Source of the DNA: a virus
Reading direction: 5' to 3' (one strand)
Virus genome (UHGV): UHGV-0151217
DNA: 32,488 bases
Part shown: positions 1-13,913 of the stretch, piece by piece
Numbering within the stretch: the stretch's first letter is position 1
How the letters are laid out: each line of letters starts with the position of its first letter
Notes under the pieces: generated by a model
What the model saw: only the letters and a program-made list of their open reading frames with translations
What the model was told of the DNA's origin: nothing
Databases searched by the model: none
Translations under genes and position numbers: made by a program

Positions 1-66
1 TTTCGCCGAGAGTTTAACTGGTCACCGCGTGATATTCGTCAGGGACGGGATGGTTTTCTGCAATAA
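1..66 (+). CDS. rhaS: L-rhamnose operon activator RhaS, extreme 3' end (gene begins upstream of window)
   Basis: Frame 1 reads [21 protein letters not shown] then TAA. This matches my recollection of the RhaS C-terminus, and it is followed 73 nt later by an RhaR N-terminus, as in the rhaSR operon. Confidence 0.75.
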
Positions 67-139
67 CGCGAATCTTCTCAACGTATTTGTACGCCATATT
101 GCGAATAATCAACTTCGTTCTCTGGCCGAGGTAGCCACG

Positions 140-277
140 GTGGCGCATCAGTTAAAACTTCTCAAAGATGATTTTTTTGCCAGCGACCAGCAGGCAGTCG
201 CTGTGGCTGACCGTTATCCGCAAGATGTCTTTGCCGAACATACACATGATTTTTGTGAGCTGGTGATTGTGGGGTAG
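140..277 (+). pseudogene. rhaR: rhaR 5' fragment, truncated by prophage insertion
   Basis: From GTG at 140 the frame reads [44 protein letters not shown], the RhaR N-terminus as I recall it. After ...ELVIV the frame runs into unrelated sequence and stops at 275-277, where RhaR should continue for ~240 more residues. Confidence 0.75.
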
Positions 278-427
278 TGATCAATTCTGGGCGGAGTTCG
301 TGCAGCCTGGTAGAACCTGCAAGCCTTGTGTGGCGCGGGGTATGGTGATTTAGTGTGATTCTGGGCGGATTTGTGAGAAATGACCAAAAGTGCCTTTTTT
401 TACGCTTTATTCTGGGCGCTTTTGATC
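278..427. repeat. Left-end array of three direct repeats (candidate transposase-binding sites, attL-like)
   Basis: ATTCTGGGCGGAGTTCGTG (284-302), ATTCTGGGCGGATTTGTG (357-374) and ATTCTGGGCGCTTTTGATC (409-427) lie within 150 bp of the host junction, arranged like the L1-L3 sites of a transposable phage. The sequence is not the Mu consensus. Confidence 0.5.
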
Positions 428-569
428 TGGTGGTGTAAGAAAGCGATCTCCTTTTAAAAGATTTTAAAACTCGTTTAAAAGATTCTAAAGCCCGTTCTAA
501 TCTTGTCTGATTTATTCCTTTCTTATCAGTTGTCGGTATTGGTTTTGTTGGATGTCGCTAGTTAGTTGG

Positions 570-612
570 CAGCATACGCCTACCAAGTAGTAGGCGTTCA
601 TGCTGGTTTTTT
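570..612 (+). terminator. Intrinsic-terminator-like hairpin plus T-run at the 3' end of the repressor gene (+ strand orientation)
   Basis: Stem CAGCAT-ACGCCTAC / GTAGGCGT-ATGCTG (570-605) followed by GTTTTTT (606-612). The repressor stop codon lies inside the stem. Confidence 0.4.
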
Positions 613-1245
613 GCTTACAGGTTTCGTTTCTTGCTCCAGCGTGGCAATGGTCTCACCACCTGGCGACCCAGTCCGTGCACGAGATTCGATGCGTCGCAAA
701 ATCTCTTTATCAGTTTCTTCATTACCAGCCAATGCCATGCAAATAGCGTCTTTAAGCGATTCCCTGATGTTTAGGCTTCTGATGGCAGTCTCTTGTTCGT
801 CCAGGTCGCTGTCGGTCTGCTTAGTTTGCCTGGTTGGTTGCTGTAGGCGTTCCAAGATTCCTTTAATGCCCATATCGCATATTGCACTTATCAGTTGCTC
901 CTTAACTTCTGTGGACGCTCTTTTCAATAACTCGTTAACTAGCTCGTTTGTAATATCGGGAGAAGGCTGCGCTGTTTGATTTGATAGAGAACCTTCTTTG
1001 GTGGTGGGTTCCTTACCGTAAGCGAGCCAATTTAAGCTCACTTGCTCTTTATCTGAGATAAGGCAGGCTATTTTAAAAGAAGGCTCAGTTCCTTTATGAA
1101 TGTAGTTGTTTAAGGTTGAAGGGGGGATTCCCCAATCACTCGCAGCAGTTCTGACACTGCGATTACCTATCAGCTTTACTAAACGCTCTCTGAAACTTTC
1201 TTTTCCCCGGTCGACAAAAGAAAAAGCATCATCATTTCTGGTCAT
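598..1245 (-). CDS. Prophage repressor (Mu c-like position, predicted DNA-binding)
   Basis: 215-aa ORF on the minus strand, divergent from ner, with an RBS (GAGGAAAG) upstream of the ATG. The N-terminal segment DWGIPPSTLNNYIHKG looks like an HTH. Position immediately inside the phage left end matches a Mu-type repressor. Confidence 0.7.
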   Translation of the reverse strand: MTRNDDAFSFVDRGKESFRERLVKLIGNRSVRTAASDWGIPPSTLNNYIHKGTEPSFKIACLISDKEQVSLNWLAYGKEPTTKEGSLSNQTAQPSPDITNELVNELLKRASTEVKEQLISAICDMGIKGILERLQQPTRQTKQTDSDLDEQETAIRSLNIRESLKDAICMALAGNEETDKEILRRIESRARTGSPGGETIATLEQETKPVSKKPA

Positions 1246-1378
1246 TTTTTCTTTCCTCTATAACTAGTTGATTTTAATTGCAAAAACCACATAAAGACCA
1301 AAATCAAAAAGAAAATACAAAGAAAGGGCTATTTTTGCTTTACATGGGCTACATATGGATCAATACTTGTATCCGAAG

Positions 1379-1400
1379 GGATAACACGGCGGTGTTATCC
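1379..1400. promoter_or_regulatory. Perfect inverted repeat in the repressor/ner divergent control region (candidate operator)
   Basis: GGATAACAC-GGCG-GTGTTATCC, a perfect 9-bp dyad, sits 28 bp upstream of the ner start and downstream of a TTTACA (1339-1344) candidate -35. Confidence 0.4.
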
Positions 1401-1427
1401 GCACGGATAATTTTTAAGGGTAACCTA

Positions 1428-1664
1428 ATGATGGTTAGAAATGAAGTAATGAACAAAGACTGGCACCGCGAGTACATCGTTGCCGCTGTGCACACCAAAG
1501 GTTTTACATTGCGTGAACTTTCTGAACGCGCTGGTCTAAAAAAAGACTCTTTAAAAAATGCACTGTATCGCTCATGCCCTAAATATGAACGCATCATAGC
1601 CGATGCTATTGGTGTGGAACCTGCGGAGATCTGGCCAAGCCGGTATGCCAGTAAGGCGGCGTAA
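1428..1664 (+). CDS. ner: Ner-like DNA-binding early regulator
   Basis: The 78-aa product contains DWHREYIVAAVHTKGFTLRELSERAGL...IIADAIGVEPAEIWPSRY, closely resembling the Mu Ner family. RBS AAGGGTAA. The stop overlaps the transposase start. Start may instead be 1449 (MNKDW...). Confidence 0.8.
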   Translation: MMVRNEVMNKDWHREYIVAAVHTKGFTLRELSERAGLKKDSLKNALYRSCPKYERIIADAIGVEPAEIWPSRYASKAA

Positions 1665-3706
1665 TGTTTTATTCAGCCAATGAGCTGGCCGGTCTTCCTC
1701 GTTTGCCCGGTACAGTTCAGGGGGTGCGATGGACGCTCAATCGGATCACAGAGACGCACCCGGAATGGAAGCGCAAGCGTGAAGGCACAAAAGCATTCGA
1801 GTATCACATCGACAGCCTGCCCGCTGAAGCGCAGAAAGTTTTACGTAAGCGCCTGACTCATCAGGTCCTGGAAGATGCACAACTGCCCGCCGTGGTTGAG
1901 CAGAAGGCAGTTAAAAACGTCGCCGTTCGCGATGAACTGGAAGTGATGGTCAAATGCCCGGAACTGGCATTACGCGAAGTCCAGGCACTGACCGACAAGC
2001 AAAAGGCCATTGCTGATGCGCGGATATTGCTGGCTACTGAAGTGCATAAACTGCGTGAATACGCCGGAATGACCAGGAAGGCCGCGTTAAAGCACATCGT
2101 TGATGGTGTGCGCATGGGGGCGTTACCTGACCGCATTATCGAAGCAGCGAATACTGCAAATGCACGTCAGGGAAAGCGAACCGGTGTCAGCACCGGCAGC
2201 CTGGATAGCTGGTACTCCAGCTGGGTGATGGCGCGCGGTGATGCCAATCAGTTACTGGCGTTACTGGCTCCCGGTCATCATAAGGGAACTCCGTGGGAGC
2301 AGGTCTGGTGGCTGAGCGATTTCTTTATGTTCTATCGCTCATGGAAGCGCCCGACCGTTGAATACGCTTATCGCGAGTTTTCAGCCTGGTGGCATGAGAA
2401 ACACGCGAATGATGCGGGAATGCTGGCGGCACTGCCTTCAGTTCACGCAGTAAGACGAGTGTTAAGCAGCGTCCCGGTGATTGTTAAGGAGCGTTTCCGC
2501 TCCACAGGTTCAGCCTGGCGTTCGCTCAATCCCTTTGTGCGGCGCGAGTGGACATCATTACCGGTTAATGCGGTATGGGTCGGGGATGGTCACTGTATGA
2601 AAATGACCGCGTTTAACCCCCTGACCGGCAATATTTTCCGGCCAGAAGTGACGCTGGTTATGGATGCGGGGCAGCGCTTTGTTGTGGGCTGGTCACTGTC
2701 CCTGTCGGAAAACGTGATAGCCGTTGCTGATGCGTTGCGTTACGGCATGGCACAGCACGGGATACCGCTGATTTATTATTCCGATAACGGGGGCGGCGAA
2801 AAAAACCGGGTGCTTGATGCCGATATTACCGGGATTCTGCCCCGGCTGGGTGTGGAGCATCACACGGGGATACCGGGTAACCCGCAGGGGCGCGGGGTAA
2901 TAGAACGGGCAAACAAAGGAATACCCAAAGACGTGGCACTGAGTTTCCAGACGTACTGCGCAAAGGATGCAGACAAGGAAACCGTAATGATGCAGCAACG
3001 GATTATGCAGTCGGCCATTAAGGCCACCCACAAAGGGAAAGAACTGACAAAACGGCAGGTTAAGGCGAGGGATGAAATCCCCACCTTTGAGCAACTGATG
3101 GCCGCCATAGAGCTGGAGGTCAGACGCTATAACAACCGGCCACACAGCAGCCTTCCCCGCAAAGAGGATGGCGAATATTACAGCCCGGCAGCGTATCGCC
3201 GGAAACTGATAAAAGAGCAGAATGTTGAAATTGATTTTCTGTCGCAGGAAGAACTGCATGAAATGTTCAGGCCGGAAGTGACGCGCAAAACATTTCGCGG
3301 GGAAATTCAGTTATTCAACAATATTTATTACTCGTATGAACTGGCCGCAGAGCACGGGAATGAAGTCAGGGTCAGTTACGATATTCATGACGCAAACAGT
3401 GTCATTGTCCGTCGGGCTGATGGCTCTTATATCTGCGATGCCATCTGGAACGGCAATAAGGTTGATGCCTTCGCTAAACCAGTTATCGAGCAAAAACTGG
3501 AGAAACGCGTCAGAGGCCGCATTGCACGGGCCACGCAGAAAATCGAAGAGGCTAAACGCGAGCTTACCCCGGCTATTACGCAGAAATCTGAGTTTAATTT
3601 TGGATTTGGTCTGGAGCGCCCGGAGAAAAAGGAAAAAGAAGAACTTTATTTATTCGCATCTGAACGCGAGCGCAATTTAAAGAAAAACGGCACAAACAAC
3701 CGTTAA
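1664..3706 (+). CDS. DDE transposase (MuA-like)
   Basis: 680-aa ORF immediately after ner with a TAATG stop/start overlap. Size and position match phage Mu transposase A. Confidence 0.85.
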   Translation: MFYSANELAGLPRLPGTVQGVRWTLNRITETHPEWKRKREGTKAFEYHIDSLPAEAQKVLRKRLTHQVLEDAQLPAVVEQKAVKNVAVRDELEVMVKCPELALREVQALTDKQKAIADARILLATEVHKLREYAGMTRKAALKHIVDGVRMGALPDRIIEAANTANARQGKRTGVSTGSLDSWYSSWVMARGDANQLLALLAPGHHKGTPWEQVWWLSDFFMFYRSWKRPTVEYAYREFSAWWHEKHANDAGMLAALPSVHAVRRVLSSVPVIVKERFRSTGSAWRSLNPFVRREWTSLPVNAVWVGDGHCMKMTAFNPLTGNIFRPEVTLVMDAGQRFVVGWSLSLSENVIAVADALRYGMAQHGIPLIYYSDNGGGEKNRVLDADITGILPRLGVEHHTGIPGNPQGRGVIERANKGIPKDVALSFQTYCAKDADKETVMMQQRIMQSAIKATHKGKELTKRQVKARDEIPTFEQLMAAIELEVRRYNNRPHSSLPRKEDGEYYSPAAYRRKLIKEQNVEIDFLSQEELHEMFRPEVTRKTFRGEIQLFNNIYYSYELAAEHGNEVRVSYDIHDANSVIVRRADGSYICDAIWNGNKVDAFAKPVIEQKLEKRVRGRIARATQKIEEAKRELTPAITQKSEFNFGFGLERPEKKEKEELYLFASERERNLKKNGTNNR

Positions 3707-3724
3707 TTTAAAAGGTATTTAATT

Positions 3725-4618
3725 ATGAGTTTAATTACGCAATTAAATGACGTAATGGCCCGTCGCGGCTATACGCAGACCCACGTCGCCCGTGCAATTG
3801 GTCGTAGCAGCGCCGTTATCAACCAGTATTTGCAGGGTAAATATCAGGGCGATATGGCTGATATTGAAGAACGCATTTCTGCCTTTGTGACCCGTGAGCG
3901 GGAAAAGGAAAACAGCCGCCGTATTAAAGCAAAGTTTGTGACCACCGGTATGGCTGCCAAAGGACTGGAGGTGCTGGCCTACGCTCACCTGGAATGTGAA
4001 ATCTGTGTGCTGTATGGCGCAGCTGGCCTTGGCAAAACAATGATTCTGCGTGAATACGCCGCCAGAAACCGGGATGCGGTCCTGATTGAGGCTGACCCAG
4101 GCTATACAGCCAGGACACTGCTTGAGGAGTTGTGCCGCCAGCTGGGGGTAAAGGTTCGCGGCAACATTCACGAACTGATTGATGCCTGTGTGCGCGAACT
4201 GCGTGATTCCGGTCGTCTGCTGATGGTGGACGAAGCTGAACTGCTCCCCTATCGCGCACTGGAGGTTCTGCGCCGTCTGCATGATAAAGCGGGTATCGGG
4301 GTTGTCCTGGCGGGTATGCCTCGTCTTCTGATTAATCTCAAGGGGCGTCGTGGTGAATTTGCGCAGTTATACAGCCGCGTGGCGCTGGCGCTTAACCTGG
4401 GCGACACGCTGGCGCAGGAAGATTTTAACCAGATAGCCACCGGGCTGATGCCGGAAGCAGCAGAACCGGAAATCAGCGAGGCGCTTTACGCGCGCTCGCT
4501 GGGTAATGCCCGCCGCCTGTTCAAACTGGCGCGCGGTGTGTACCGGATTTGCGATATCAGCGATGCGCCGGTCAGTGTGCAGGCCATAGATAAATTCGCA
4601 GAAATGTTAATTCACTGA
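3725..4618 (+). CDS. Transposition ATPase (MuB-like, AAA+)
   Basis: 297 aa with a Walker A motif (GAAGLGKT), a Walker B-like LLMVDEAE, and an N-terminal HTH-like segment. Directly follows the transposase. Confidence 0.85.
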   Translation: MSLITQLNDVMARRGYTQTHVARAIGRSSAVINQYLQGKYQGDMADIEERISAFVTREREKENSRRIKAKFVTTGMAAKGLEVLAYAHLECEICVLYGAAGLGKTMILREYAARNRDAVLIEADPGYTARTLLEELCRQLGVKVRGNIHELIDACVRELRDSGRLLMVDEAELLPYRALEVLRRLHDKAGIGVVLAGMPRLLINLKGRRGEFAQLYSRVALALNLGDTLAQEDFNQIATGLMPEAAEPEISEALYARSLGNARRLFKLARGVYRICDISDAPVSVQAIDKFAEMLIH

Positions 4619-4631
4619 GTAAAGGTCAGGT

Positions 4632-4964
4632 ATGGAACAGATTGCCGTAAAAAAAGAAATTAAAGCACTACGGAATATCGGTCGTAATGGTTGTATTTAT
4701 TTTAATGGAACCCCCGGTGAAATTATTCCGTTTGTTGATTGCTTCGTGCCGGGTGAACTGCGTATTGATTTATATTCCCGTGAACGGGAAATCAATGGAA
4801 CCGGAAATACCAGCGACGACTGGGATGTTGATGAATGCTGTGCGCGATTAATGATTATTCCTTTTGAGCAGACTTTGCAGGGGTTTCGTCGGGCTTACCG
4901 CCTTGCACGCATGTGTGCCCACCTGCCCCGGTATCAGCCCCGACTGGCGTTTACGCTCAGATAA
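4632..4964 (+). CDS. Hypothetical protein (accessory early region)
   Basis: 110-aa ORF, 13 nt after the MuB-like stop. Bracketed by a 19-bp direct repeat (see findings). No family recognised. Confidence 0.5.
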   Translation: MEQIAVKKEIKALRNIGRNGCIYFNGTPGEIIPFVDCFVPGELRIDLYSREREINGTGNTSDDWDVDECCARLMIIPFEQTLQGFRRAYRLARMCAHLPRYQPRLAFTLR

Positions 4965-5002
4965 TACAGCAGAGAAATGTTAATTCACTGATGGAGAACA
5001 AA

Positions 5003-5230
5003 ATGATGGAAAAGCAGGCCATTAATGCCGTCCGTTCCCGTGCCCGTGTGGCTATCCATACCACTGGCGGTCGCGTAACGGGGCAGCATCACCGTTTACC
5101 TGTGGTTTATGCCTGCCCGCCTGTGGGTGGTCCTGTATGGCCGGTAACGGAAATCGTTCAGACATTCAGCGGCCTGCGCCGCGTGGTTAAAACGTCCTGT
5201 ATCGACGGCTGTACCGTCGTATGGCAATGA
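5003..5230 (+). CDS. Hypothetical protein
   Basis: In-frame ATGs at 4991, 5003 and 5006. GGAG at 4993-4996 favours 5003. No family recognised. Confidence 0.45.
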   Translation: MMEKQAINAVRSRARVAIHTTGGRVTGQHHRLPVVYACPPVGGPVWPVTEIVQTFSGLRRVVKTSCIDGCTVVWQ

Positions 5231-5242
5231 GAGGAAATCAGA

Positions 5243-5458
5243 ATGGCGGTGAAATTAGAAGTAATTATCTATACCAATGAAAAAGGCGCGACTCTTACCC
5301 GGATTACAGGGAGTTATTCGAAGGATGGCACTTCCAAAAGGGAGCTTCAGGTGGCAACAGGATTACATGATGTTATCAAGGAAACGCTTAGAAATGACTA
5401 TAACGGCGTGAATCTTTTTTCTGAAAACGTTGCGCCTCGCGCACATAACACACATTAA
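5243..5458 (+). CDS. Hypothetical protein
   Basis: 71-aa ORF with RBS GAGAGGAAA 6-8 nt upstream of the ATG. Confidence 0.5.
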   Translation: MAVKLEVIIYTNEKGATLTRITGSYSKDGTSKRELQVATGLHDVIKETLRNDYNGVNLFSENVAPRAHNTH

Positions 5459-5487
5459 TCTGTAAATATCACTGAGGTAATTTAATT

Positions 5488-6132
5488 ATGACGACTGAAA
5501 ATAAAGTTAAGCAATACACGAAAACTCAAGCGCCTGAAGGTTATTGGGTGGATGCACGTGGCGTAATGACACCTGAAAGCCTTATCAAAGATATTGACCG
5601 CGACCGCGAGCAGCTGGTCGGTGAGCTTGTGGAGATGGTGATTGCTGCCTCCGCCTCACTACGTGAACTGAAACTGCGTGCGTTTGGTGATATTCAGGCG
5701 TTTATTGACCTGTCGGCGGAGAAATACGGCGCTGTGAAAGGCGGCAAAAAAGGCAATATCACGCTTTACAGCTTTGACGGGCGATACAAGATTCAGCGCG
5801 CCATGCAGGACCGTATCGCGTTTGATGAACGCATTCAGACCGCGAAGTCGCTGATTGATGATTGCCTGGCTGACTGGACGGAAGGTGCGCGCCCTGAAAT
5901 TAAAGCCATCATTAGCGAGGCATTCAGCACGGACAAGGAAGGCAACATTAACACAGGGCGCGTTCTGGCCCTGCGTCGCCTCGAAATTGAGGACGAACGC
6001 TGGAATAACGCCATGATGCTGATTGGTGAAGCCGTCCAGGTGATTGGCAGCAAGAGCTATATTCGTGTGTATGAGCGCGTTGGTGATTCTGATGAATACC
6101 GCGCAATCCCGCTTGATATTGCAGGGGTTTAA
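5488..6132 (+). CDS. Hypothetical protein (possibly DUF3164-type, as found in Mu-like prophages)
   Basis: 214-aa ORF with RBS GAGGT upstream. The family assignment is from memory of the profile and is uncertain. It is not Gam-like by eye. Confidence 0.65.
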   Translation: MTTENKVKQYTKTQAPEGYWVDARGVMTPESLIKDIDRDREQLVGELVEMVIAASASLRELKLRAFGDIQAFIDLSAEKYGAVKGGKKGNITLYSFDGRYKIQRAMQDRIAFDERIQTAKSLIDDCLADWTEGARPEIKAIISEAFSTDKEGNINTGRVLALRRLEIEDERWNNAMMLIGEAVQVIGSKSYIRVYERVGDSDEYRAIPLDIAGV

Positions 6133-6133
6133 C

Positions 6134-6367
6134 ATGCATCAGGATATCAAAGAGTACAGAGCCGGAAATCGTTGCGCGGCGTATTCGCTGGGTGCATCCA
6201 GAGCAGAACAACGCGGCGATTATGATGAGGCAGAAAAACTGTGGCGCAAGGCAGCGCAAAGCCCGTGTAGCACCCTGCGCCGCATCTGGGCTGAACATCG
6301 TGCGGAGTTCTGCGCTAACGCTCACCTGAAGGGCTGGAGGCCACGCCATGAATGCGAAGAACTTTAA
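6134..6367 (+). CDS. Hypothetical small protein (possibly ANR-family-like regulator)
   Basis: 77 aa, RBS GCAGGGG, starts 2 nt after the preceding stop. Helical W/R/A-rich composition resembles small ANR-type proteins. Tentative. Confidence 0.55.
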   Translation: MHQDIKEYRAGNRCAAYSLGASRAEQRGDYDEAEKLWRKAAQSPCSTLRRIWAEHRAEFCANAHLKGWRPRHECEEL

Positions 6368-6539
6368 TAAGCAGTATCCGGTAGGGACTCGCTTCATGCA
6401 CACTGCACATCCGGCGTTGCGTGGTGGTCGTGTGGTGAAAACCGTTTCACCTGCCAGAGATTTTAAATGTGGTTGTGTGGTTGAAATTAATGTCGAGCCT
6501 TATTTCGTTAAAATCGAAACACTGAAAGCACCGCATTAA
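6348..6539 (+). CDS. Hypothetical protein
   Basis: 63-aa ORF overlapping the end of the previous gene, with GGAGG 9 nt upstream. Confidence 0.5.
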   Translation: MNAKNFNKQYPVGTRFMHTAHPALRGGRVVKTVSPARDFKCGCVVEINVEPYFVKIETLKAPH

Positions 6540-6619
6540 TTTAATTTGTTTTTAATTGTTATTTAAAACAGGCGTAAACCCGCCGGGCTGGCTTACGCCT
6601 GAATCAAGAGGATTTGTAT

Positions 6620-7165
6620 ATGAAAGATAAAGTCTGGGATTTTATTGTTACTCCTGAAGGTTTTGCCACCCGTTCATCTGAGAAGTTAACCAATGTAACG
6701 TTATGGGCGTCATCCTTGCTGGGCTGTCTGGGAGCACCGGGTAATTTTATGGATGTGGTGCTTGATGCCCAGATTGCCGGGAATGCTGTGGCCAGTAGCG
6801 GGGCGTATATTCAGGGGGATTTGTTCGCCATGATGGCGAATGACACAGCAGCGCTGTATATCGCCACACGGAACATACTGACAAGAATAACCATGCTGTC
6901 TGACTGTAAGGATATGGAAGACCTCGCATACATCCTTGAAGATGATTTGCTCACTATTTCAGGCGTGCAGGAATCCCTCCCGCGTCAGTTGCGGTTTATT
7001 GACCTGATGGAGTCATATAAAGATAAGCCTGATTTTTTTCAGATTCGATTCAGTGGAATGGAACTACTGGATGAATATTATCCGCTGGATTCGATTTCCC
7101 GTGATGTGAAGGCGTTCGTTAAATCTGTTGACCGTCATTACCGGAAAACTGAACGTCGTAGTTAA
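6620..7165 (+). CDS. Hypothetical protein, no recognisable family (candidate moron)
   Basis: 181 aa from ATG 6620 with RBS AAGAGGA 6 nt upstream (a TTG at 6614 is less likely). Preceded by one copy of the conserved stem-loop leader and followed by the second copy. Confidence 0.7.
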   Translation: MKDKVWDFIVTPEGFATRSSEKLTNVTLWASSLLGCLGAPGNFMDVVLDAQIAGNAVASSGAYIQGDLFAMMANDTAALYIATRNILTRITMLSDCKDMEDLAYILEDDLLTISGVQESLPRQLRFIDLMESYKDKPDFFQIRFSGMELLDEYYPLDSISRDVKAFVKSVDRHYRKTERRS

Positions 7166-7245
7166 TAAGTCTGTTTTTAATTTTATTTGTATATGGCGTA
7201 AACCCGCCGGGGCTGGCTTACGCCTGAGTCAGGGAGAGTTTATTT

Positions 7246-7428
7246 ATGAATATCGCAAAGCAAAAAAAGTTCGCCCGCGAAATTAATCTGACAATCGTTT
7301 GTTTTAATCGTCTTGCGACCAGTTCTCAATCGACAGCAGATGCTCATTCAGTACCGCAGCCAGAACGAACTCCCCACGTTCCTGAAGGCCGTGCCGGAAG
7401 TTGCGTAATTCAGAATTCAGGATGCTGA
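7246..7428 (+). CDS. Hypothetical small protein (weak)
   Basis: 60-aa ORF with RBS GGGAGAG, directly after the second leader copy. The C-terminal half is S/T/P-rich and not obviously protein-like. Confidence 0.35.
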   Translation: MNIAKQKKFAREINLTIVCFNRLATSSQSTADAHSVPQPERTPHVPEGRAGSCVIQNSGC

Positions 7429-7441
7429 GGTTCAGACGACC

Positions 7442-8152
7442 ATGAAAAATAAATACATCGCCAAAATTAAAAAGCTGTTACGCCTTGCAAGAGGGACATC
7501 AAGCCCGGAAGAAGCCGCTAACGCTATTGCAAAAGCCCAGGCTTATATGCGCCAGCATGGTATCAGCGAAAACGACGCGGAATTGTTCGACATTCAGGAC
7601 GCTGCCAGCGCGGGTGCGCCGAGTGATGCCAGTACACCGCCGCGTTATATGCACATCCTGTGTGACCTGGTCTGTAAAGCCTTCGGTGTCGAGTGTTACA
7701 TCTCCGGCGAATACCGGGCTTCTGGTTCACTCAAACGTTACGTTCGTTTTTATGGTCCTGACAGCCGCCCGGAAATCGCGGCCTACGCGTTTGATGTGCT
7801 TTCCCGTCAGATGATGGCAGAGCGCAAGAAATATCAGGATAAACACTGCAAACGTTGCGGTCCGTCCACGCGGGTGGCCCGTGGCGACCAGTTCTGCGAA
7901 GGCTGGGGCTTTGGTGCCCGTGATGTCATTGCGGTGTATGACGTCTCCCCGGAAGAAAAAAGCCGCCTTGAGCTTTACAGAAAGAACCTGCACAGCACCA
8001 AGGGACTGCGCGACGGGGATATGCGCACCGCTAAAGCGTGCCGGGGTGCAGAGTCTGCCGCTACAGCCGGTTTTATCGCCGGGAAAAACGCCAGACTGCA
8101 TCAGGGGGTTAATGGTCAGAGCAACAAAACGCTGGCACTGGGGAGGGTGTAA
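7442..8152 (+). CDS. DUF2786-like protein (phage accessory protein of unknown function)
   Basis: N-terminus KIKKLLRLARGTSSPEEAANAIAKAQAYMRQHGI matches my memory of the DUF2786 signature. Central cysteines (HCKRCG ... QFCEGWG) suggest a metal-binding module. Confidence 0.7.
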   Translation: MKNKYIAKIKKLLRLARGTSSPEEAANAIAKAQAYMRQHGISENDAELFDIQDAASAGAPSDASTPPRYMHILCDLVCKAFGVECYISGEYRASGSLKRYVRFYGPDSRPEIAAYAFDVLSRQMMAERKKYQDKHCKRCGPSTRVARGDQFCEGWGFGARDVIAVYDVSPEEKSRLELYRKNLHSTKGLRDGDMRTAKACRGAESAATAGFIAGKNARLHQGVNGQSNKTLALGRV

Positions 8153-8154
8153 CG

Positions 8155-8382
8155 ATGGCTTTTAAACTTCTCAGTGTTACCGAAGCAATATACCAGCCGC
8201 CCGGAGAACGCCACGAATACAGGATGAATGACGGTAGCGCGGCGGTTGAGTTCCCTGAATATCCGGGGGCTTCCCGGTGGCGGTTCTATGACAGTGCGGG
8301 ACGCCGGATTATTAAAAGAACCGTGCACAACGCCATGAAAGCTGCTGTAGAACGTCACAAAAGAAGGTTTAACTGCAAATGA
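8155..8382 (+). CDS. Hypothetical protein
   Basis: 75-aa ORF with RBS GGGAGGG. Packed tightly between neighbours. Confidence 0.55.
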   Translation: MAFKLLSVTEAIYQPPGERHEYRMNDGSAAVEFPEYPGASRWRFYDSAGRRIIKRTVHNAMKAAVERHKRRFNCK

Positions 8383-8609
8383 ATATTGAATTTTATGACT
8401 ACGGAGTCACCGCAAAAATCATTGTTACCTGCTGGTTCTGGGAGTTCCGCCGCTATCGCCGGGTTGTGGATGCGGCGCTGTTTGTTGCTCCTGAAGTGCG
8501 CCATGAGAGCGGTGGCGGTCTTTTAATGAGAACAGTCATCACCGGTAAAACGGTTCCGATGTTACGGGCGTTTAAGGTGGCAAAACAGGAGGCTGGCAAT
8601 GGTCATTGA
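8379..8609 (+). CDS. Hypothetical protein
   Basis: 76-aa ORF with ATGA overlap to the upstream stop. Confidence 0.5.
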   Translation: MNIEFYDYGVTAKIIVTCWFWEFRRYRRVVDAALFVAPEVRHESGGGLLMRTVITGKTVPMLRAFKVAKQEAGNGH

Positions 8610-8889
8610 TAAAACGATAACGATAGATGTAGCCATGAATACAGGTCTGGCGCTTATCGGTTATGGCTATATCATTTTTATGTCATTCAGGTGGTTGATT
8701 TCTTCGTTCTTTAAGCAATGTGAAAAACGTCGCCGCAAAGACAAGCGCGTGAAGGCGCTAAATGCGTTTAATGACGCTTTTGATATTGACCGTATGCAGC
8801 AGGGAGATCCGGCACGCGTAATTACCCTGGGAGATATCGTGATTTTGGTATACCGGAGTGAAAAAAATGAGCAGGAGGCGGCGCAGTGA
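8599..8889 (+). CDS. Hypothetical small membrane protein
   Basis: 96 aa, RBS AGGAGG 7 nt upstream. One predicted N-terminal transmembrane segment (LALIGYGYIIFMSFRWLISSFF) followed by a basic stretch. Confidence 0.55.
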   Translation: MVIDKTITIDVAMNTGLALIGYGYIIFMSFRWLISSFFKQCEKRRRKDKRVKALNAFNDAFDIDRMQQGDPARVITLGDIVILVYRSEKNEQEAAQ

Positions 8890-9194
8890 ACCAGCAAACC
8901 AGAATAAGCGATAAGAGCCTGACCAGACTGATTGCCGATGCTGACAAAATGCTTGATATGCGCGGGCCGATTGTAGACAGAGAGTGGTGGACGCTCTTAC
9001 GGCAGTCCCTGCTGGAGCTTCAGGAATACCGGAGAGCAGGAATCATTCCGGTGACACCGGGAGCAAAAGAGCATCAGCTCAGGGAGCTGGTTAATAAATT
9101 ACGCGATGTGGCAATCAAATACCACGGAACGCAGCAATTACGGGCGCATATTGCAAAAACAGTAATCCGTTCAGGACTGATTTCAGGGGAATAA
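8886..9194 (+). CDS. Hypothetical protein
   Basis: 102-aa ORF from a GTG start overlapping the upstream stop (GTGA), with AGGAGG upstream. Confidence 0.5.
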   Translation: MNQQTRISDKSLTRLIADADKMLDMRGPIVDREWWTLLRQSLLELQEYRRAGIIPVTPGAKEHQLRELVNKLRDVAIKYHGTQQLRAHIAKTVIRSGLISGE

Positions 9195-9198
9195 TCAG

Positions 9199-9381
9199 AT
9201 GAAAAACCGTAAAGCAAAAATTCTTTTGACCTGTAGAAACGCTCGCGGCGTCCAGCAATGGCTAAAACTCAGTAACCGCAGAATGGGTTTGTTCACAAAC
9301 ACAGCTGATATTGTGATGTGTTCCCTTAACAAGCCCAGCGCAGCCCAAAATCGCTGGAAGAATCACACTAACGCAAAGTAA
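9199..9381 (+). CDS. Hypothetical small basic protein
   Basis: 60-aa ORF with RBS CAGGGGAA. Confidence 0.45.
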   Translation: MKNRKAKILLTCRNARGVQQWLKLSNRRMGLFTNTADIVMCSLNKPSAAQNRWKNHTNAK

Positions 9382-9399
9382 TTAAATAATAACCAACAG

Positions 9400-9445
9400 C
9401 AGACCAAAACATATGTTTTGGTCTGCCAAAAATGATGTTTTGGTC
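9400..9445. promoter_or_regulatory. Operator-like site: 26-bp perfect palindrome plus a third half-site
   Basis: CAGACCAAAACAT|ATGTTTTGGTCTG (9400-9425) and a further GTTTTGGTC at 9437-9445, just downstream of an AT-rich -10-like stretch (TAATTAAATAAT) and directly upstream of ATG 9449. Confidence 0.4.
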
Positions 9446-9448
9446 ATT

Positions 9449-9727
9449 ATGAAGATTGAACAAATCGGAATGGCAGCTTTCAGGCAACAGGCTGAAAGCG
9501 GTGGCGTGGATGAGTTCGTCGTGCAGCGGTTCGGGGGTGTGTATCACCTCTTCGCTGTGAATCGCCGCGCCGGGGTGTCCTATTTTCTACAGGAACGCCG
9601 TGGCGATTACAAGACGTGGCTGTCTCTTGACCGTGCCGCCGCGTTCCTGTCGGGGATTGGTGTTTCACGTTTTACCGTGCGTTTTGAGGATAACAAACAT
9701 GCAGAAAAAGATGATCGGGGCCATTAA
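9449..9727 (+). CDS. Hypothetical protein (start uncertain)
   Basis: ORF open from 9413 with in-frame ATGs at 9413, 9449 and 9470 and no clear RBS. 3' end overlaps gemA by 29 nt. Confidence 0.4.
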   Translation: MKIEQIGMAAFRQQAESGGVDEFVVQRFGGVYHLFAVNRRAGVSYFLQERRGDYKTWLSLDRAAAFLSGIGVSRFTVRFEDNKHAEKDDRGH

Positions 9728-10112
9728 AGCCGGTCAGGCATATCTGGGGTGGGATGATGCTCTTTATCGCCAGACACTGATCCGCCTGACAGGTAAAACC
9801 AGCACCACACGCTGCAATCTCGATGAACTGCGCATCATCCGGGAATACATGCACGAACAGGGATTTCCGCGCAAGGCCCCCGCTGGTAAAGGTCGCCGCC
9901 CTCGTGTTGCAATGAGCAGAAAATCGGTATTATCCAAAATTGAAGCGTTACTGGCTGATGCCGGTCGTTCCTGGGCGTATGCGGAAGGACTGGCATCTCA
10001 CATGTATAAGCAACATGTGATCGAATGGCTGACGGATGAACAGCTTTTCGGGGTGATGGTGGCGCTGACAAAAGACGCCAGAAAACGAGTCAGAGCAGCA
10101 CGTAAACAATAA
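9699..10112 (+). CDS. gemA: GemA-like regulatory protein (DUF1018 family)
   Basis: 137 aa from ATG 9699 with RBS GAGGA. MIGAIKAGQAYLGWDDALYRQTLIRLTGKTS... matches the GemA/DUF1018 pattern, and the position before Mor/C matches Mu. Confidence 0.7.
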   Translation: MQKKMIGAIKAGQAYLGWDDALYRQTLIRLTGKTSTTRCNLDELRIIREYMHEQGFPRKAPAGKGRRPRVAMSRKSVLSKIEALLADAGRSWAYAEGLASHMYKQHVIEWLTDEQLFGVMVALTKDARKRVRAARKQ

Positions 10113-10118
10113 AGAATC

Positions 10119-10145
10119 AGCCCCTGCCTTGCAGGGGCTTTTTTG
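10119..10145 (+). terminator. Rho-independent terminator after gemA
   Basis: AGCCCCTGC-CTT-GCAGGGGCT hairpin followed by TTTTTT. Confidence 0.6.
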
Positions 10146-10150
10146 TGGTC

Positions 10151-10178
10151 TGTACAGGCGATCATGTATGGCTATAAT
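10151..10178 (+). promoter_or_regulatory. Candidate sigma70 promoter upstream of the Mor/C-family gene (possible middle promoter)
   Basis: Perfect TATAAT at 10173-10178 with TGTACA 16 bp upstream, 30 bp before ATG 10208. Confidence 0.35.
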
Positions 10179-10207
10179 AACAGTAAGTTACTACCGGAGA
10201 CGCCATC

Positions 10208-10675
10208 ATGCAGACCTTCAGTGAAACAGATCTTCGCGATGCGCAGGCACTGCTGCCCGATTCCGTGCAGCAACTGATTAGCGTGATTGGCTTCCCCGCC
10301 ATGACCCGGTTGATTCGTTCTTTTGGTGGCGTGACGTTAAGCGGTAAAACCGGCGCACACGCCGAACGTACTGGCGGTGTCCATGCCCTGTTACATGACG
10401 TGCTGACCGAAGACGAAATCAACAAACTGATCCGCTTTCTTGGCGGTGCTCCGTTTTACATTCCCCGTTGCGATCATGCGTTACGTGCTCTGCGTAACGC
10501 CCGTTTTATGGCTGATTTACAGCAGCATATCAGAGACGGATTTTCACACCGGCAGGCGCTGGCACTGCTTTGTCCCCGTTACGGGATTTCAGACCGGTAC
10601 GCATGGCAGCTGATACACCGACGACAAAAACAGACTTCGCTGAAAAGCCCCACCCAGGTGGGGCTTTTTGATTAA
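10208..10675 (+). CDS. Mor/C-family transcriptional activator of late (or middle) genes
   Basis: C-terminal LIRFLGGAPFYIPRCDHALRALRNARFMADL...YGISDRYAWQLIHRR aligns with the Mu Mor/C HTH region (...HLGGGQVYIPRG...). Which of Mor or C it corresponds to is unresolved. Confidence 0.8.
   Translation: MQTFSETDLRDAQALLPDSVQQLISVIGFPAMTRLIRSFGGVTLSGKTGAHAERTGGVHALLHDVLTEDEINKLIRFLGGAPFYIPRCDHALRALRNARFMADLQQHIRDGFSHRQALALLCPRYGISDRYAWQLIHRRQKQTSLKSPTQVGLFD
10646..10670 (+). terminator. Rho-independent terminator at the end of the Mor/C-family gene
   Basis: AGCCCCACC-CAG-GTGGGGCT hairpin followed by TTTTT, overlapping the last codons. Confidence 0.55.
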
Positions 10676-10701
10676 TGGGCCTCAGAAAAAAGGAGACACT
10701 T

Positions 10702-10980
10702 ATGACCAACTATACGGCACTTGGCGAGTATACAGCCTACTCAGAGCAGGCCCGGGATGCTGCCGGACGCCGCTTCGCTTATATGAAAAATCTGGCCAGC
10801 CAGCTAAACCGAATGGCCGAACAACCGGATATGGTTGTTCAGGAAGAAGCGTTGCAGTGTGCCATTGCTGACATCATCGCCAGCGAAAACGAGATGCGTG
10901 CAGCGATGGAAAAGGCGAACGCCTCTGCTCCGCTTTGTAATAAACCTCTTATTACGCCGGATTCTCTTTCCCGCTTCTGA
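10702..10980 (+). CDS. Hypothetical protein
   Basis: 92 aa from ATG 10702 with RBS AAGGAG. The ORF is open from 10675. Confidence 0.5.
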   Translation: MTNYTALGEYTAYSEQARDAAGRRFAYMKNLASQLNRMAEQPDMVVQEEALQCAIADIIASENEMRAAMEKANASAPLCNKPLITPDSLSRF

Positions 10981-11000
10981 TTTATCACCCCGCCGCCGCG

Positions 11001-11027
11001 GGGTGCTGAACTCCCTCAGCAGTACCC
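11001..11027 (+). promoter_or_regulatory. Conserved late-region motif, copy A (candidate activator-dependent late promoter element)
   Basis: GGGTGCTGAACTCCCTCAGCAGTACCC, 24/27 identical to copy B at 19005-19031. Lies upstream of the lysis cassette. Confidence 0.4.
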
Positions 11028-11162
11028 ACCACACCAGACCGTTTACCCTGTCCACTCAGACCACAAGGCACCTTAAGGGATAGCGCCCTGCAAAAGGCTT
11101 CTGTGCCTTTGACAGGGTGTTATTTACGGGCCGTCAGTGGCTCAGATTTACAGGAGAAACTC

Positions 11163-11555
11163 ATGTCTGAACCCTTATCAGGCGGTGGAGCTGTGGCAGT
11201 CACCATTGGTGGTGCCAGTGTGTTTGGTCTTCTCACCAATACCGATTTCGGGGTTGTGGTGGGCGCGTTTGCCGGGGCGCTTTTTGTTGTCACGCAGCAG
11301 AAAGAAATCCCGGTCTGGCGAATGGCCATCCACCTGCTCGTCGCATTTGTGGTTGGCGTTCTGGGGGCTGGCGTGGCTGCGTCACTGATGCAGTGGCTGA
11401 CCCACTACAACGACAAGCCGCTCGATGCATTGTGTGCGGTCGGTGTCTCGGCGTTATCCATCAAGATACTGACCTTTCTTTATCAACAGGAAATTTCATC
11501 GCTGTTCGGCCTGTTTTCCAGACTGCGCGGCGGAGGGGGTGGAAATGGAAAGTAG
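11163..11555 (+). CDS. Putative holin / lysis membrane protein
   Basis: 130 aa with RBS CAGGAGAAA, about three hydrophobic segments and a Gly-rich C-terminus. First gene of the lysis block. Confidence 0.5.
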   Translation: MSEPLSGGGAVAVTIGGASVFGLLTNTDFGVVVGAFAGALFVVTQQKEIPVWRMAIHLLVAFVVGVLGAGVAASLMQWLTHYNDKPLDALCAVGVSALSIKILTFLYQQEISSLFGLFSRLRGGGGGNGK

Positions 11556-11823
11556 CCTTGCCGGTATCGTGAACGTCTGGCTGTGTCTCACCATTGTTCT
11601 GGGGTTGTTTGTGTATCGCCGCCACGGTGCGGCGCACAAACCGATGATTACCTGGCTGGCGTACTGGCTGATGCTCGGCTACGTCATCATCCCGTTCCGC
11701 TGGCTGTCCGGTACATACACGCAATCCAGCTGGCTGGTTGTGGCGCTGAATCTGGTTTTCTGTGCGCTTATCGTGTGGGCGCACGGGAATTTGTCAAAAA
11801 TCCTTTCGTTATTGCGGAGGTGA
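11545..11823 (+). CDS. Small membrane protein (lysis-associated)
   Basis: About 92 aa, strongly hydrophobic, with GGAGGGGG upstream. Start may be GTG 11539 instead of ATG 11545. Confidence 0.5.
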   Translation: MESSLAGIVNVWLCLTIVLGLFVYRRHGAAHKPMITWLAYWLMLGYVIIPFRWLSGTYTQSSWLVVALNLVFCALIVWAHGNLSKILSLLRR

Positions 11824-11825
11824 AT

Positions 11826-12203
11826 ATGTCGGGAAAATTCCGTTTCAGTCAACGTAGCGAGAAAAATCTGGCTGACGTAAAGCCACAACTGGTGGCAGTT
11901 GTACGCCGTGCGCTGGCGTTGTCGGACGTCGATTTTGGTATTACCGAAGGTTTACGCACGAAAGAACGTCAGAAACAACTTGTCGCTGAAGGCAAGAGCC
12001 AGACCATGAACAGCCGTCACCTTACTGGCGATGCCGTTGATGTCGTGGCTTACGTTGGTAGCACTATTTCATGGGACTGGCCGTTATACGAAAAAATCGC
12101 CCGTGCCTTTAAACAGGCTGCCGCAGAGCTGGGTGTCGCCATCGAATGGGGCGGAGACTGGAAAACGCTGAAAGACGGGCCTCATTTCCAGTTAAAACGC
12201 TGA
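11826..12203 (+). CDS. Endolysin, peptidase M15-type (L-alanyl-D-glutamate / D-Ala-D-Ala peptidase family)
   Basis: 125 aa with RBS GGAGGTGA. DVDFGITEGLRTKERQKQLVAEGKSQTMNSRHLTGDAVDV matches the zinc-peptidase (VanY/M15-like) endolysin signature. Confidence 0.8.
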   Translation: MSGKFRFSQRSEKNLADVKPQLVAVVRRALALSDVDFGITEGLRTKERQKQLVAEGKSQTMNSRHLTGDAVDVVAYVGSTISWDWPLYEKIARAFKQAAAELGVAIEWGGDWKTLKDGPHFQLKR

Positions 12204-13172: not shown

Positions 13173-13913
13173 ATGCAAAAACAGATTATTGGTAACGCAA
13201 CGTTGTATTGCGGTGATGTTCTTGATGTGCTGCCGGCGTTATCCGAACGTTTTGATGCCGTCATTACCGACCCGCCTTACAGCAGTGGTGGTACACACAA
13301 ATCAGACCGCAGCATGGCCCCTTCGGACAAGTATATCGGTCACACCCAGTATGCCGAGTTCACCGGCGATAACCGCGACCAGCGCAGCTGGGCGTTCTGG
13401 TGTTCCATGTGGATATCTCATGCATTGCACAGGCTGAATTCCGGCGGTTATTTCATGGTGTTCAGTGACTGGCGACAACTACCGGCGCTTACAGATGCAT
13501 TTCAGGCCGGTGGTGTGCTGTGGCGTGGTCTGGTTGTCTGGGATAAAACGCAGGCTTCCCGTGCGCCACACACTGGCTATTTTCGGCATCAGGCCGAGTA
13601 TGTGGTCTGGGGCAGCAACGGAAAACTCGACAAATGCCCGCACGGTGGCCCGTTCCCGGGTGTGATTACGCAGCGTGTCGTCCCGTCCGAAAAACTGCAC
13701 ATGACCGCAAAGCCGGTTCAGCTGATGGCTGAGCTGGTTAAACCGCTGACACCGGATGCGCACGTCCTTGATCCGTTTATGGGAAGCGGCACTACCGCCA
13801 TCCCTGTACTTGCCCGTGGCGGACGGTTTACCGGCATTGAAATGACTAACCAGTATTTTGATATCGCCTGCGCACGAATCGAAAAAGCCCAGACAGAAGC
13901 AGTGCAGGTGTGA
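13173..13913 (+). CDS. DNA methyltransferase (amino-MTase, beta-class: N6-adenine or N4-cytosine)
   Basis: Catalytic motif IV DPPY (ITDPPYSSGG) near the N-terminus and AdoMet motif I (DPFMGSGTT) near the C-terminus. This order is typical of beta-class enzymes such as the CcrM/HinfI type. No adjacent restriction gene. Confidence 0.85.
   Translation: MQKQIIGNATLYCGDVLDVLPALSERFDAVITDPPYSSGGTHKSDRSMAPSDKYIGHTQYAEFTGDNRDQRSWAFWCSMWISHALHRLNSGGYFMVFSDWRQLPALTDAFQAGGVLWRGLVVWDKTQASRAPHTGYFRHQAEYVVWGSNGKLDKCPHGGPFPGVITQRVVPSEKLHMTAKPVQLMAELVKPLTPDAHVLDPFMGSGTTAIPVLARGGRFTGIEMTNQYFDIACARIEKAQTEAVQV

Follow-up and report, generated by a model that had tools for sequence, protein, structure and literature searches.

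The virus genome UHGV-0151217, a stretch of 32,488 nucleotides referred to here at its full length as the window, carries a Mu-like prophage, and the region that concerns us (4632–9727) is the part of its early operon between a MuB-like gene and gemA, filled by 15 plus-strand open reading frames (ORFs) of 60–236 aa that we call g1–g15. Gene order along the window runs from a repressor through ner-like, MuA-like and MuB-like genes, the early region, gemA and mor to the lysis, terminase, head and tail genes, with the following landmarks:

598–1245, minus strand: repressor
1664–3706: MuA-like transposase
3725–4618: MuB-like ATPase, the left boundary of the region
9699–10112, plus strand: gemA (PF06252 at 2.9e-18), the right boundary of the region
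10208–10675: mor

Because the repressor, ner, MuA-like, MuB-like, gemA and mor genes stand in Mu order, the element is a transposable Mu-like prophage, of a lineage of Escherichia and Citrobacter that is distant from Mu itself: its A and B proteins are 23% and 32% identical to those of Mu, and the nearest sequenced phage transposases, from Pseudomonas VW-6B, Klebsiella ST405-OXA48phi1.1 and Yersinia Tongde, are 43–49% identical. The early region is found in 75 of 5,426 complete Escherichia coli genomes at 92–99% nucleotide identity, including that of the enteropathogenic E. coli (EPEC) strain E2348/69, and late genes are complete downstream in the prophage. A RhaR-like fragment of host DNA at 29–277 forms the left end of the window, so that the prophage appears to sit in or beside the rhamnose regulon of its host; a near-identical prophage in strain RIVM_C036569 adjoins uspA instead, and such differing insertion sites are as transposition would predict.

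The 15 genes of the region, all on the plus strand, are as follows:

4632–4964: g1, 110 aa; cassette gene of a small unannotated family at the B/kil junction
5003–5230: g2, 75 aa; homologue of Kil-type septation inhibitors, with an alternative start at 4991
5243–5458: g3, 71 aa; fast-evolving, with divergent alleles at one position
5488–6132: g4, 214 aa; DUF3164, occupying the Gam slot of other transposable phages
6134–6367: g5, 77 aa; ANR family, orthologue of Rnr by sequence
6348–6539: g6, 63 aa; conserved partner gene of DUF3164
6620–7165: g7, 181 aa, acidic; cassette gene between two copies of a hairpin element
7246–7428: g8, 60 aa; probable small gene
7442–8152: g9, 236 aa; DUF2786 and DUF7168
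8155–8382: g10, 75 aa, basic; widely conserved backbone gene
8379–8609: g11, 76 aa
8599–8889: g12, 96 aa; DUF4752 with a hydrophobic N-terminal segment, part of a swappable cassette
8886–9194: g13, 102 aa; chimeric cassette gene
9199–9381: g14, 60 aa, very basic (isoelectric point, pI, 11.7); cassette gene
9413–9727: g15, 104 aa, or 92 aa from a start at 9449; overlaps gemA by 29 nt

Coding sequence on this single strand takes up ~4,806 of the 5,096 bases (94%), with overlaps at five junctions (20 nt at g5/g6, ATGA at g10/g11, 11 nt at g11/g12, GTGA at g12/g13 and the 29 nt at g15/gemA) and remaining intergenic gaps of mostly 1–38 nt. Shine-Dalgarno-like sequences lie upstream of most of the starts, which were chosen with guidance from the RefSeq annotation of near-identical prophages, an annotation that omits g8, g14 and often g10. 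Thirteen of the 15 ORFs match PHROG families (E 1e-22 to 1e-117), the exceptions being g1 and g8; five match Pfam or NCBIfam families; and all 15 exact sequences already appear in public collections of proteins under the name "hypothetical protein", each from tens to hundreds of contigs. The ratio of non-synonymous to synonymous polymorphism (pN/pS), computed here and below against six related prophages, lies at about 0.02–0.2 in one group (g2, g4, g5, g9, g10, g11 and g15) and at 0.2–0.5 in another (g3, g6 and g7). On account of the low pN/pS values, the PHROG matches and the presence in public collections, we take these ORFs as real genes rather than chance frames, 14 of them well supported and g8 probable, and under purifying selection.

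A first-pass annotation, made from the letters of the window alone, had described about 15 packed plus-strand ORFs of 60–236 aa, many with overlapping stop and start codons, and had read them as a Mu-type semi-essential early region; the ORF count, density and overlaps given above agree with the description, and the position between B and gemA/mor bears out the reading. The DUF2786-like protein that it named, and the DUF3164- and ANR-like ones that it named as possible, are indeed present (5e-13, 5e-81 and 57.9 bits). Its statement that almost no families are recognisable was overstated in view of the PHROG, Pfam and NCBIfam matches, and it missed both the Kil homologue (phrog_2679) and DUF4752; "almost no known functions" is the correct wording for the region, as functions are known, by homology or orthology, for two ORFs, g2 (Kil) and g5 (Rnr). 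Homology of every ORF to a characterised Mu early protein would have counted against its reading; the Mu matches are limited to Kil, GemA and Mor.

How these genes are distributed among related phages is seen most directly in 42 loci chosen by similarity to the window phage's B protein alone (hereafter B-selected), in which the genes occur at the following frequencies:

Backbone: g4 in 41 of 42, g6 in 41 of 42
Grouped with the backbone: g10 in 34 of 42, g9 in 32 of 42, g5 in 31 of 42
Specific to the E. coli/Citrobacter lineage: g2 in 17, g3 in 17, g11 in 16 and g15 in 16 of 42
Rare cassettes: g13 in 14, g12 in 13, g8 in 12, g14 in 9, g7 in 5 and g1 in 4 of 42

Between close relatives, gene content varies at fixed junctions, namely B/kil, g3, DUF3164/g6, g6/g9 and g11/g15, and g12–g14 are swapped in relatives for other cassettes, such as Ead/Ea22-like genes. 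The view of the whole region as accessory thus holds for parts of it, which are variable slots, and fails for several genes such as DUF3164 and g6; g4, g6, g9 and g10 are backbone genes and do not behave as occupants of variable slots. Some of the slots are marked by direct repeats, 19-bp repeats around g1 and hairpin elements around g7:

4600–4618, plus strand: perfect 19-bp direct repeat (AGAAATGTTAATTCACTGA), left copy, formed by the last bases of the MuB-like gene with its stop codon
4973–4991, plus strand: right copy of the 19-bp direct repeat, bounding the 354-bp g1 insert
6550–6601, plus strand: copy 1 of a repeated element of ~52 nt, consisting of an AT-rich run and the hairpin CAGGCGTAAACCCGCCGGGCTGGCUUACGCCUG, followed by a Shine-Dalgarno-like sequence and the g7 ATG
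7174–7226, plus strand: copy 2 of the element, followed by a Shine-Dalgarno-like sequence and the g8 ATG

Relatives that lack g1 have a single copy of the 19-bp repeat, after which the kil leader follows at once. The hairpin in the repeated element is GC-rich (copy 1 folds at -18.4 kcal/mol, z -3.3), and the copy number of the element in relatives follows cassette content, with one copy where the slot is empty and two where it holds a DUF7448 gene and g7.

We therefore consider it highly probable that a conserved backbone interrupted by cassette hot spots, in the early operon of a Mu-like phage, explains the region as a whole. The backbone would comprise Kil, DUF3164 with g6, g9 (DUF2786/DUF7168), g10, g11 and g15, travelling with the A and B transposition genes, and cassettes would be inserted at fixed junctions: g1 after B, g3, rnr/g5 between DUF3164 and g6, g7 and g8 with the hairpin copies, and g12–g14. 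Cassette genes would be gained, lost or swapped, some of them in exchange with lambdoid phages. A single rightward transcript would start at the early promoter, pass through ner, A and B and end at a terminator behind gemA, its genes often being translationally coupled. On homology, Kil would block host cell division, and the cassettes other than rnr would most probably have the host or competing phages as their targets. As a locus it is an ordinary early region of the Mu type, already present in many genomes and mostly recorded there as hypothetical proteins; the useful outcomes are the placement of Rnr in a prophage early operon, a hypothesis for DUF3164 and a map of backbone versus cargo.

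Two known systems frame this comparison. Like the semi-essential region of Mu (kil to gemA; AF083977), the region lies between B and gemA/mor on the same strand and consists of a dozen or more small packed genes, with Kil beside B and GemA and Mor at the end; sequence homologues are confined to those three (BLASTP E 1e-4 to 1e-3), whereas Mu gp6–gp9, Gam and gp11–gp14 are without counterpart in the window region and DUF3164, Rnr, DUF2786/DUF7168 and DUF4752 are missing from Mu. The Mu-like prophage of EPEC E2348/69 (NC_011601, about 2.717–2.727 Mb) belongs to the same lineage and carries rnr (E2348C_2635); B, kil, DUF3164, rnr, g6, DUF2786, g10, g15, gemA and mor are 86–99% identical there with their order kept. 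It differs in lacking g1 and g7, in its diverged g3 allele, and in having an Ead/Ea22-like cassette and one additional gene between gemA and mor.

Of the two genes with a known function, g5 passes the ANR model NF033650 (57.9 bits against a cut-off of 32, over 52 of 54 profile positions), shows strong constraint (pN/pS 0.02–0.07) and is 94% identical to the E2348/69 coding sequence (CDS) at 2,721,409–2,721,642, which has the same place between DUF3164 and g6. The rnr gene deleted by Rodriguez-Valverde et al. is locus E2348C_2635, with coordinates identical to those of that CDS, and the recombineering primer for rnr includes the 3' end of the DUF3164 gene (PMC10148876). Given the 94% identity, the synteny and the equality of coordinates with the published locus, we identify g5 by sequence as the orthologue of the studied EPEC Rnr. 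Weak tetratricopeptide-repeat matches of g5 fell below threshold and were not used. Two-hybrid assays show EPEC Rnr to bind H-NS and Ler, and the protein alters the expression of more than 500 genes, represses the type III secretion system of the locus of enterocyte effacement (LEE) and lowers adherence (PMC10148876); as its orthologue binds H-NS/Ler and alters so many genes, at least g5 would represent a host-reprogramming function. Like the other members of the ANR family, Aar of enteroaggregative E. coli (EAEC) and Rnr of C. rodentium and EPEC, g5 is small, passes the ANR model and falls in the class below 10 kDa. It is here an early gene of a transposable prophage, whereas the EPEC study treats Rnr as a chromosomal virulence regulator and contains no mention of "phage" (PMC10148876).

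Rnr is under study as a regulator of virulence and colonisation in EPEC and Citrobacter. The Rnr of the region is recognised here as a prophage early gene, a context that the EPEC study does not mention, and its position in the early operon of a mobile prophage changes how its distribution, its expression (in the repressed lysogen versus upon induction) and its evolutionary purpose are to be read. Fifty-three IMG/VR loci with g6 show that the ANR gene is itself a cassette in related phages: in 26 of them g6 abuts DUF3164, in 25 an ANR gene stands between the two, and in the other two the ANR gene lies elsewhere. Rnr would serve the phage by relieving H-NS silencing of phage or host DNA.

The neighbouring g4 matches PF11363 (DUF3164) over profile positions 1–193 of 194 (5.5e-81; 271 bits against a cut-off of 23.7) and has a pN/pS of 0.01–0.15; g6 matches phrog_5591 (E 4.7e-40). 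Gam protects linear phage DNA ends from host exonuclease. No ORF of the region has a Pfam match to Gam (PF07352), and a Gam hidden Markov model built from 57 distinct sequences, run at E <= 10 against the ORFs in all six frames of the window, finds nothing, bearing out the earlier statement that no Gam homologue was recognised in the region. The relation between the two families was followed in 202 IMG/VR loci, 80 selected by DUF3164 (with flanks of up to 10 kb on each side), 80 selected by Gam, and the 42 B-selected ones. Gam occurs in none of the 80 DUF3164-selected loci and DUF3164 in none of the 80 Gam-selected loci; the B-selected loci contain no Gam, and the single one among them without DUF3164 is a 1.2-kb fragment. 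Sequenced phage records number at least 209 for DUF3164 and 139 for Gam, with none in common among the 60 plus 60 records listed; as a family, DUF3164 fills over 3,000 protein clusters. Both states are found within at least four phage groups: Casadabanvirus, B3-like phages, enterobacterial Mu-likes and Rhodobacter phages.

The clearest exchange is that between the Pseudomonas phages Ab30 and DMS3 of Casadabanvirus, whose flanks on the two sides of it (3.5 kb left, 3.2 kb right) are 98% identical: 600 bp of Ab30 carrying the DUF3164 gene stand in for 787 bp of DMS3 carrying Gam and a 93-aa ORF. Ab30, which carries no Gam, is a plaque-forming and lysogenising phage (PMC4482731). The 93-aa ORF, DMS3-12 (4015–4296 of locus L169), lies right after Gam and likewise bears the annotation "host nuclease inhibitor"; Gam may cooperate with a small protein, and DUF3164 may do the same with g6. 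In a B3-like pair (H71/H72), a block of 2.5–2.9 kb has been exchanged, with DUF3164 in one phage and Gam in the other, and roseobacter Mu-like phages reported to be without Gam carry DUF3164 (PMC5488378). DUF3164 is thus a non-homologous occupant of the Gam slot: like the Gam proteins of Mu, D3112 and DMS3 it stands in the same position of the early operon, it is never found together with them in these samples, and it differs in showing no sequence homology to them and no detected Ku/Gam fold and in having a 63-aa partner, g6.

Owing to this strict mutual exclusivity and to the clean replacement between near-identical phages, DUF3164, a family present in hundreds of transposable phages, gains a concrete and testable hypothesis as a Gam substitute. 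That it performs Gam's function, by analogy of position, we consider close to evenly balanced, if anything a shade less; DUF3164, perhaps together with g6, would then shield linear phage DNA ends from host exonuclease in Gam's stead. No functional study of DUF3164 (PF11363) or of DUF2786 came to light in searches of the literature. The broader proposal, which we advance only tentatively, is that DUF3164 (possibly with g6) would constitute a new, non-Ku family of DNA-end-protecting or RecBCD-neutralising proteins that has repeatedly displaced Gam, and that Rnr would in origin be a phage early gene relieving H-NS silencing during Mu-like development.

A number of observations pull in the opposite direction. 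Alignment of the DUF3164 and Gam profiles with hhalign gives a probability of 0.3%, and an AlphaFold model of DUF3164, for which homologues of at least 65% identity were used, matches neither Ku nor any Gam, though the moderate confidence of that model (predicted local distance difference test, pLDDT, 77; predicted template-modelling score, pTM, 0.49) makes the structural result weak both ways; with no detectable homology or likeness of fold, a Gam-like role can only be inferred. The protein is acidic (pI 5.1), which does not by itself suggest DNA binding, and it has its own dedicated partner in g6. In Ab30 it replaces two DMS3 genes, Gam and DMS3-12, and not Gam alone, the swapped H71/H72 block holds six genes, and the mutual exclusivity is partly phylogenetic, as whole modules are inherited together. 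DUF3164 peptides have, moreover, been reported in purified particles of the roseophages vB_ThpS-P1 and vB_PeaS-P1 (PMC5488378); barring contamination, DUF3164 could be packaged into the particle and then injected, as would suit a protein that shields the ends of incoming DNA. As to the rest of the proposal, the Rnr experiments used lysogens and over-expression and addressed no phage phenotype (PMC10148876), and no cassette gene, in the window or in the relatives, matches a known defence or anti-defence family in PADLOC or PHROG.

The same observations favour an alternative in which DUF3164 is unrelated to Gam function and is, for example, a transposition or replication accessory or a virion-associated protein in an alternative early module, a reading that we place only just short of even. 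The missing homology and fold similarity to Gam or Ku, the exchange of two or six genes at a time, the constant company of g6, the acidity of the protein and its peptides in phage particles, which would be unexpected for a Gam-like early protein, would all follow from it. It accounts less readily for an exclusivity that is strict in the 202 loci and recurs in at least four phage groups with both states, for an Ab30/DMS3 exchange that affects the Gam position only, both flanks being 98% identical, and for the viability and lysogenisation of Ab30 without Gam (PMC4482731). A further alternative concerns the variable genes g1, g3, g7, g8 and g12–g14, which could be anti-defence genes that inhibit restriction-modification or other immunity. 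The genes sit in variable slots between conserved flanks, which is how phage accessory regions are operationally defined, and such regions reportedly abound in counter-defence genes (bioRxiv 10.1101/2023.04.06.535777); the g3 alleles are divergent and show relaxed or diversifying evolution; in a lambdoid phage, the anti-RecBCD gene abc2 has a g14 homologue nearby; and expression would, to judge from position, be early, when counter-defence is needed. Against this, PADLOC on all ORFs returned nothing besides a 15.7-bit chance match, none of the PHROG families matched carries an anti-defence annotation (these searches included no library dedicated to anti-defence), all ten of the alternative cassette genes sampled in relatives likewise lack a known function, and, of the small early genes in Mu-like phages, those characterised best (Kil, Rnr and Aqs1 of DMS3) act on host physiology or superinfection rather than immunity. 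We regard an anti-defence role for this set of genes as unlikely. The early proteins of Pseudomonas Mu-like phages, such as Aqs1 (PMC13436744), and the exo-xis region of lambdoid phages offer a parallel, in that temperate phages there alter host physiology through small early genes.

It is also conceivable that the region is the decaying cargo of a defective prophage, with many of the short ORFs being chance frames or functionless pseudogenes. Several ORFs are of merely 60–76 aa, three of them are omitted always or often by RefSeq, g8 belongs to no family, and a strong hairpin buries the first ATG of g15; these points are outweighed by pN/pS values far below 1 for nearly all ORFs, by the 94% coding density on one strand and the membership of 13 ORFs in phage-derived PHROG families, by backbone genes that are kept in the same order down to 56–65% identity in other genera, and by the complete late genes, and we hold decay to be very improbable. 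The earlier designation of this region as the likeliest site for anti-defence or host-takeover functions has to be divided: its anti-defence half is without direct support, PADLOC and PHROG being empty, whereas its takeover half has support from homology in the case of Kil and from the experiments on the orthologue in that of Rnr. The remaining cassette genes are reasonable, unranked candidates for host takeover or counter-defence. Outside the region, a 246-aa ORF at 13173–13913, between a DUF1804 gene and the large terminase gene, has a counterpart annotated as a DNA methyltransferase in a near-identical prophage (L001, 14158–14898), and is a more conventional candidate for anti-restriction, by self-methylation, than any gene of the early region.

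Among the individual genes of the left part, g1 occurs in one of the six compared E. coli prophages and has no Pfam, PHROG, NCBIfam, PADLOC or PDB match; a profile of its family against PDB was also empty. The family amounts to 17 cluster representatives among 1.84 billion proteins, and a single-protein scan with g1 found only five close copies. The next gene, g2, matches phrog_2679 (Kil) at E 3.3e-35 and Mu Kil by BLASTP with 34% identity across 44 aa (E 7e-4), has a pN/pS of 0.05–0.09 and, in relatives without g1, directly follows B as kil does in Mu; on this sequence match and its position beside B, it is assigned to the Kil family. Kil homologues are established to block cell division. A match to phrog_7438 (E 1e-46) accounts for g3, whose alleles in three relatives (L005–L007) are just 45–49% identical with a pN/pS of 0.37–0.42.

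The acidic g7 matches phrog_7741 (E 1.3e-117), is missing from two relatives (L006 and L007) and has a pN/pS of about 0.28; among 5.8 billion proteins its relatives come from Escherichia only, all at 85% identity or more. PDB sequence searches with g1, g4, g7 and g9 gave nothing meaningful. The leader of g8 is a paralogue of that of g7, and g8, which matches no Pfam or PHROG family, is annotated in non-RefSeq records on up to about 1,000 contigs and differs from its counterpart in L006 by 6 synonymous and 5 non-synonymous substitutions (pN/pS 0.25). The stretch around it between g7 and g9 (7166–7441) is 98.5% conserved, against 95–96% in the flanking genes, and may encode an antisense or small RNA; Rfam has no match there, and a scan of 1–12000 at E <= 1 gave two sub-threshold chance matches outside the region. 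On its minus strand the stretch shows a hairpin followed by a T-run, resembling a terminator for leftward transcription, and the RefSeq annotation of E2348/69 places a minus-strand CDS of 72 aa where the window has the plus-strand g8.

In the right part, g9 exceeds the cut-offs of both its domains, with 49.1 bits against 23.9 for DUF2786 (5e-13) and 97.6 bits against 25.5 for DUF7168 (6e-28). Its neighbour g10 matches phrog_9400 (E 4e-40; pN/pS 0.03–0.27) and is found in all six compared prophages, though frequently unannotated. The protein has been filed in a 90%-identity cluster made up mostly of 236–238-aa DUF2786 proteins, the family of g9, yet g10 and g9 have no evident similarity; this clustering is probably an artefact or a fused gene call. 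For g11 the match is to phrog_1001 (E 4.6e-35), with 77–93% identity across relatives.

The cassette g12–g14 is more mosaic. The DUF4752 assignment of g12 is PF15944 at 2.5e-39, and several relatives either lack the gene or carry it 57–60% diverged; the N-terminal half of g13 matches phrog_14672, conservation being limited to this half in most relatives, and its C-terminal motif is common to several larger phage proteins in PHROGs of unknown function. A match to phrog_1380 (E 1.3e-23) identifies the family of g14, of which a 169-bp stretch is 92% identical in the lambdoid/P22-like phages Bas106 and Dewey; in Bas106 the homologue is placed between abc2/exonuclease and excisionase. The region thus has the g14 family in common with the lambdoid early-left region. 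It is unlike the lambdoid exo-xis region: an identification of g10–g15 with the lambda exo-xis ORFs (orf60a, orf61, orf63 and ea22) was rejected, as tblastn found no similarity at E <= 1.

The right end of the operon is marked by two structures:

9399–9426, no strand assigned: perfect 28-bp palindrome, GCAGACCAAAACAT and ATGTTTTGGTCTGC being its two halves, centred on the first ATG of g15
10119–10139, plus strand: terminator-like hairpin after gemA, with a 9-bp GC-rich stem and a T-run (-17.7 kcal/mol, z -3.75)

The palindrome is exact in five relatives and folds at -22.8 kcal/mol (z -5.6) with the AUG in its loop; it could be a protein-binding site, a hairpin controlling RNA processing or translation, or a recombination boundary of the g12–g14 slot. 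An imperfect second copy lies at 9426–9445. The gene that follows, g15, matches phrog_7844 (E 2.5e-70) and is 94–99% identical across relatives (pN/pS 0.06–0.25). Because its first ATG (9413) lies in the loop of this very stable hairpin, the start at 9449, which most annotations use, may be the true one. A ParC-like match of g15 (16.9 bits against a cut-off of 95) was sub-threshold and was not used.

The early transcript spanning the region likely ends at the hairpin at 10119–10139. In a consensus promoter scan, sites were fewer than in shuffled sequence, and we therefore claim no internal promoter. Following the hairpin and upstream of mor (within 10119–10178) stands a promoter-like site, TGTACA-16-TATAAT (10 of 12 consensus positions). 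The mor gene of Mu belongs to the early transcript; that of the window may have its own control. Some relatives carry one additional gene, of 112 or 158 aa, between gemA and mor.

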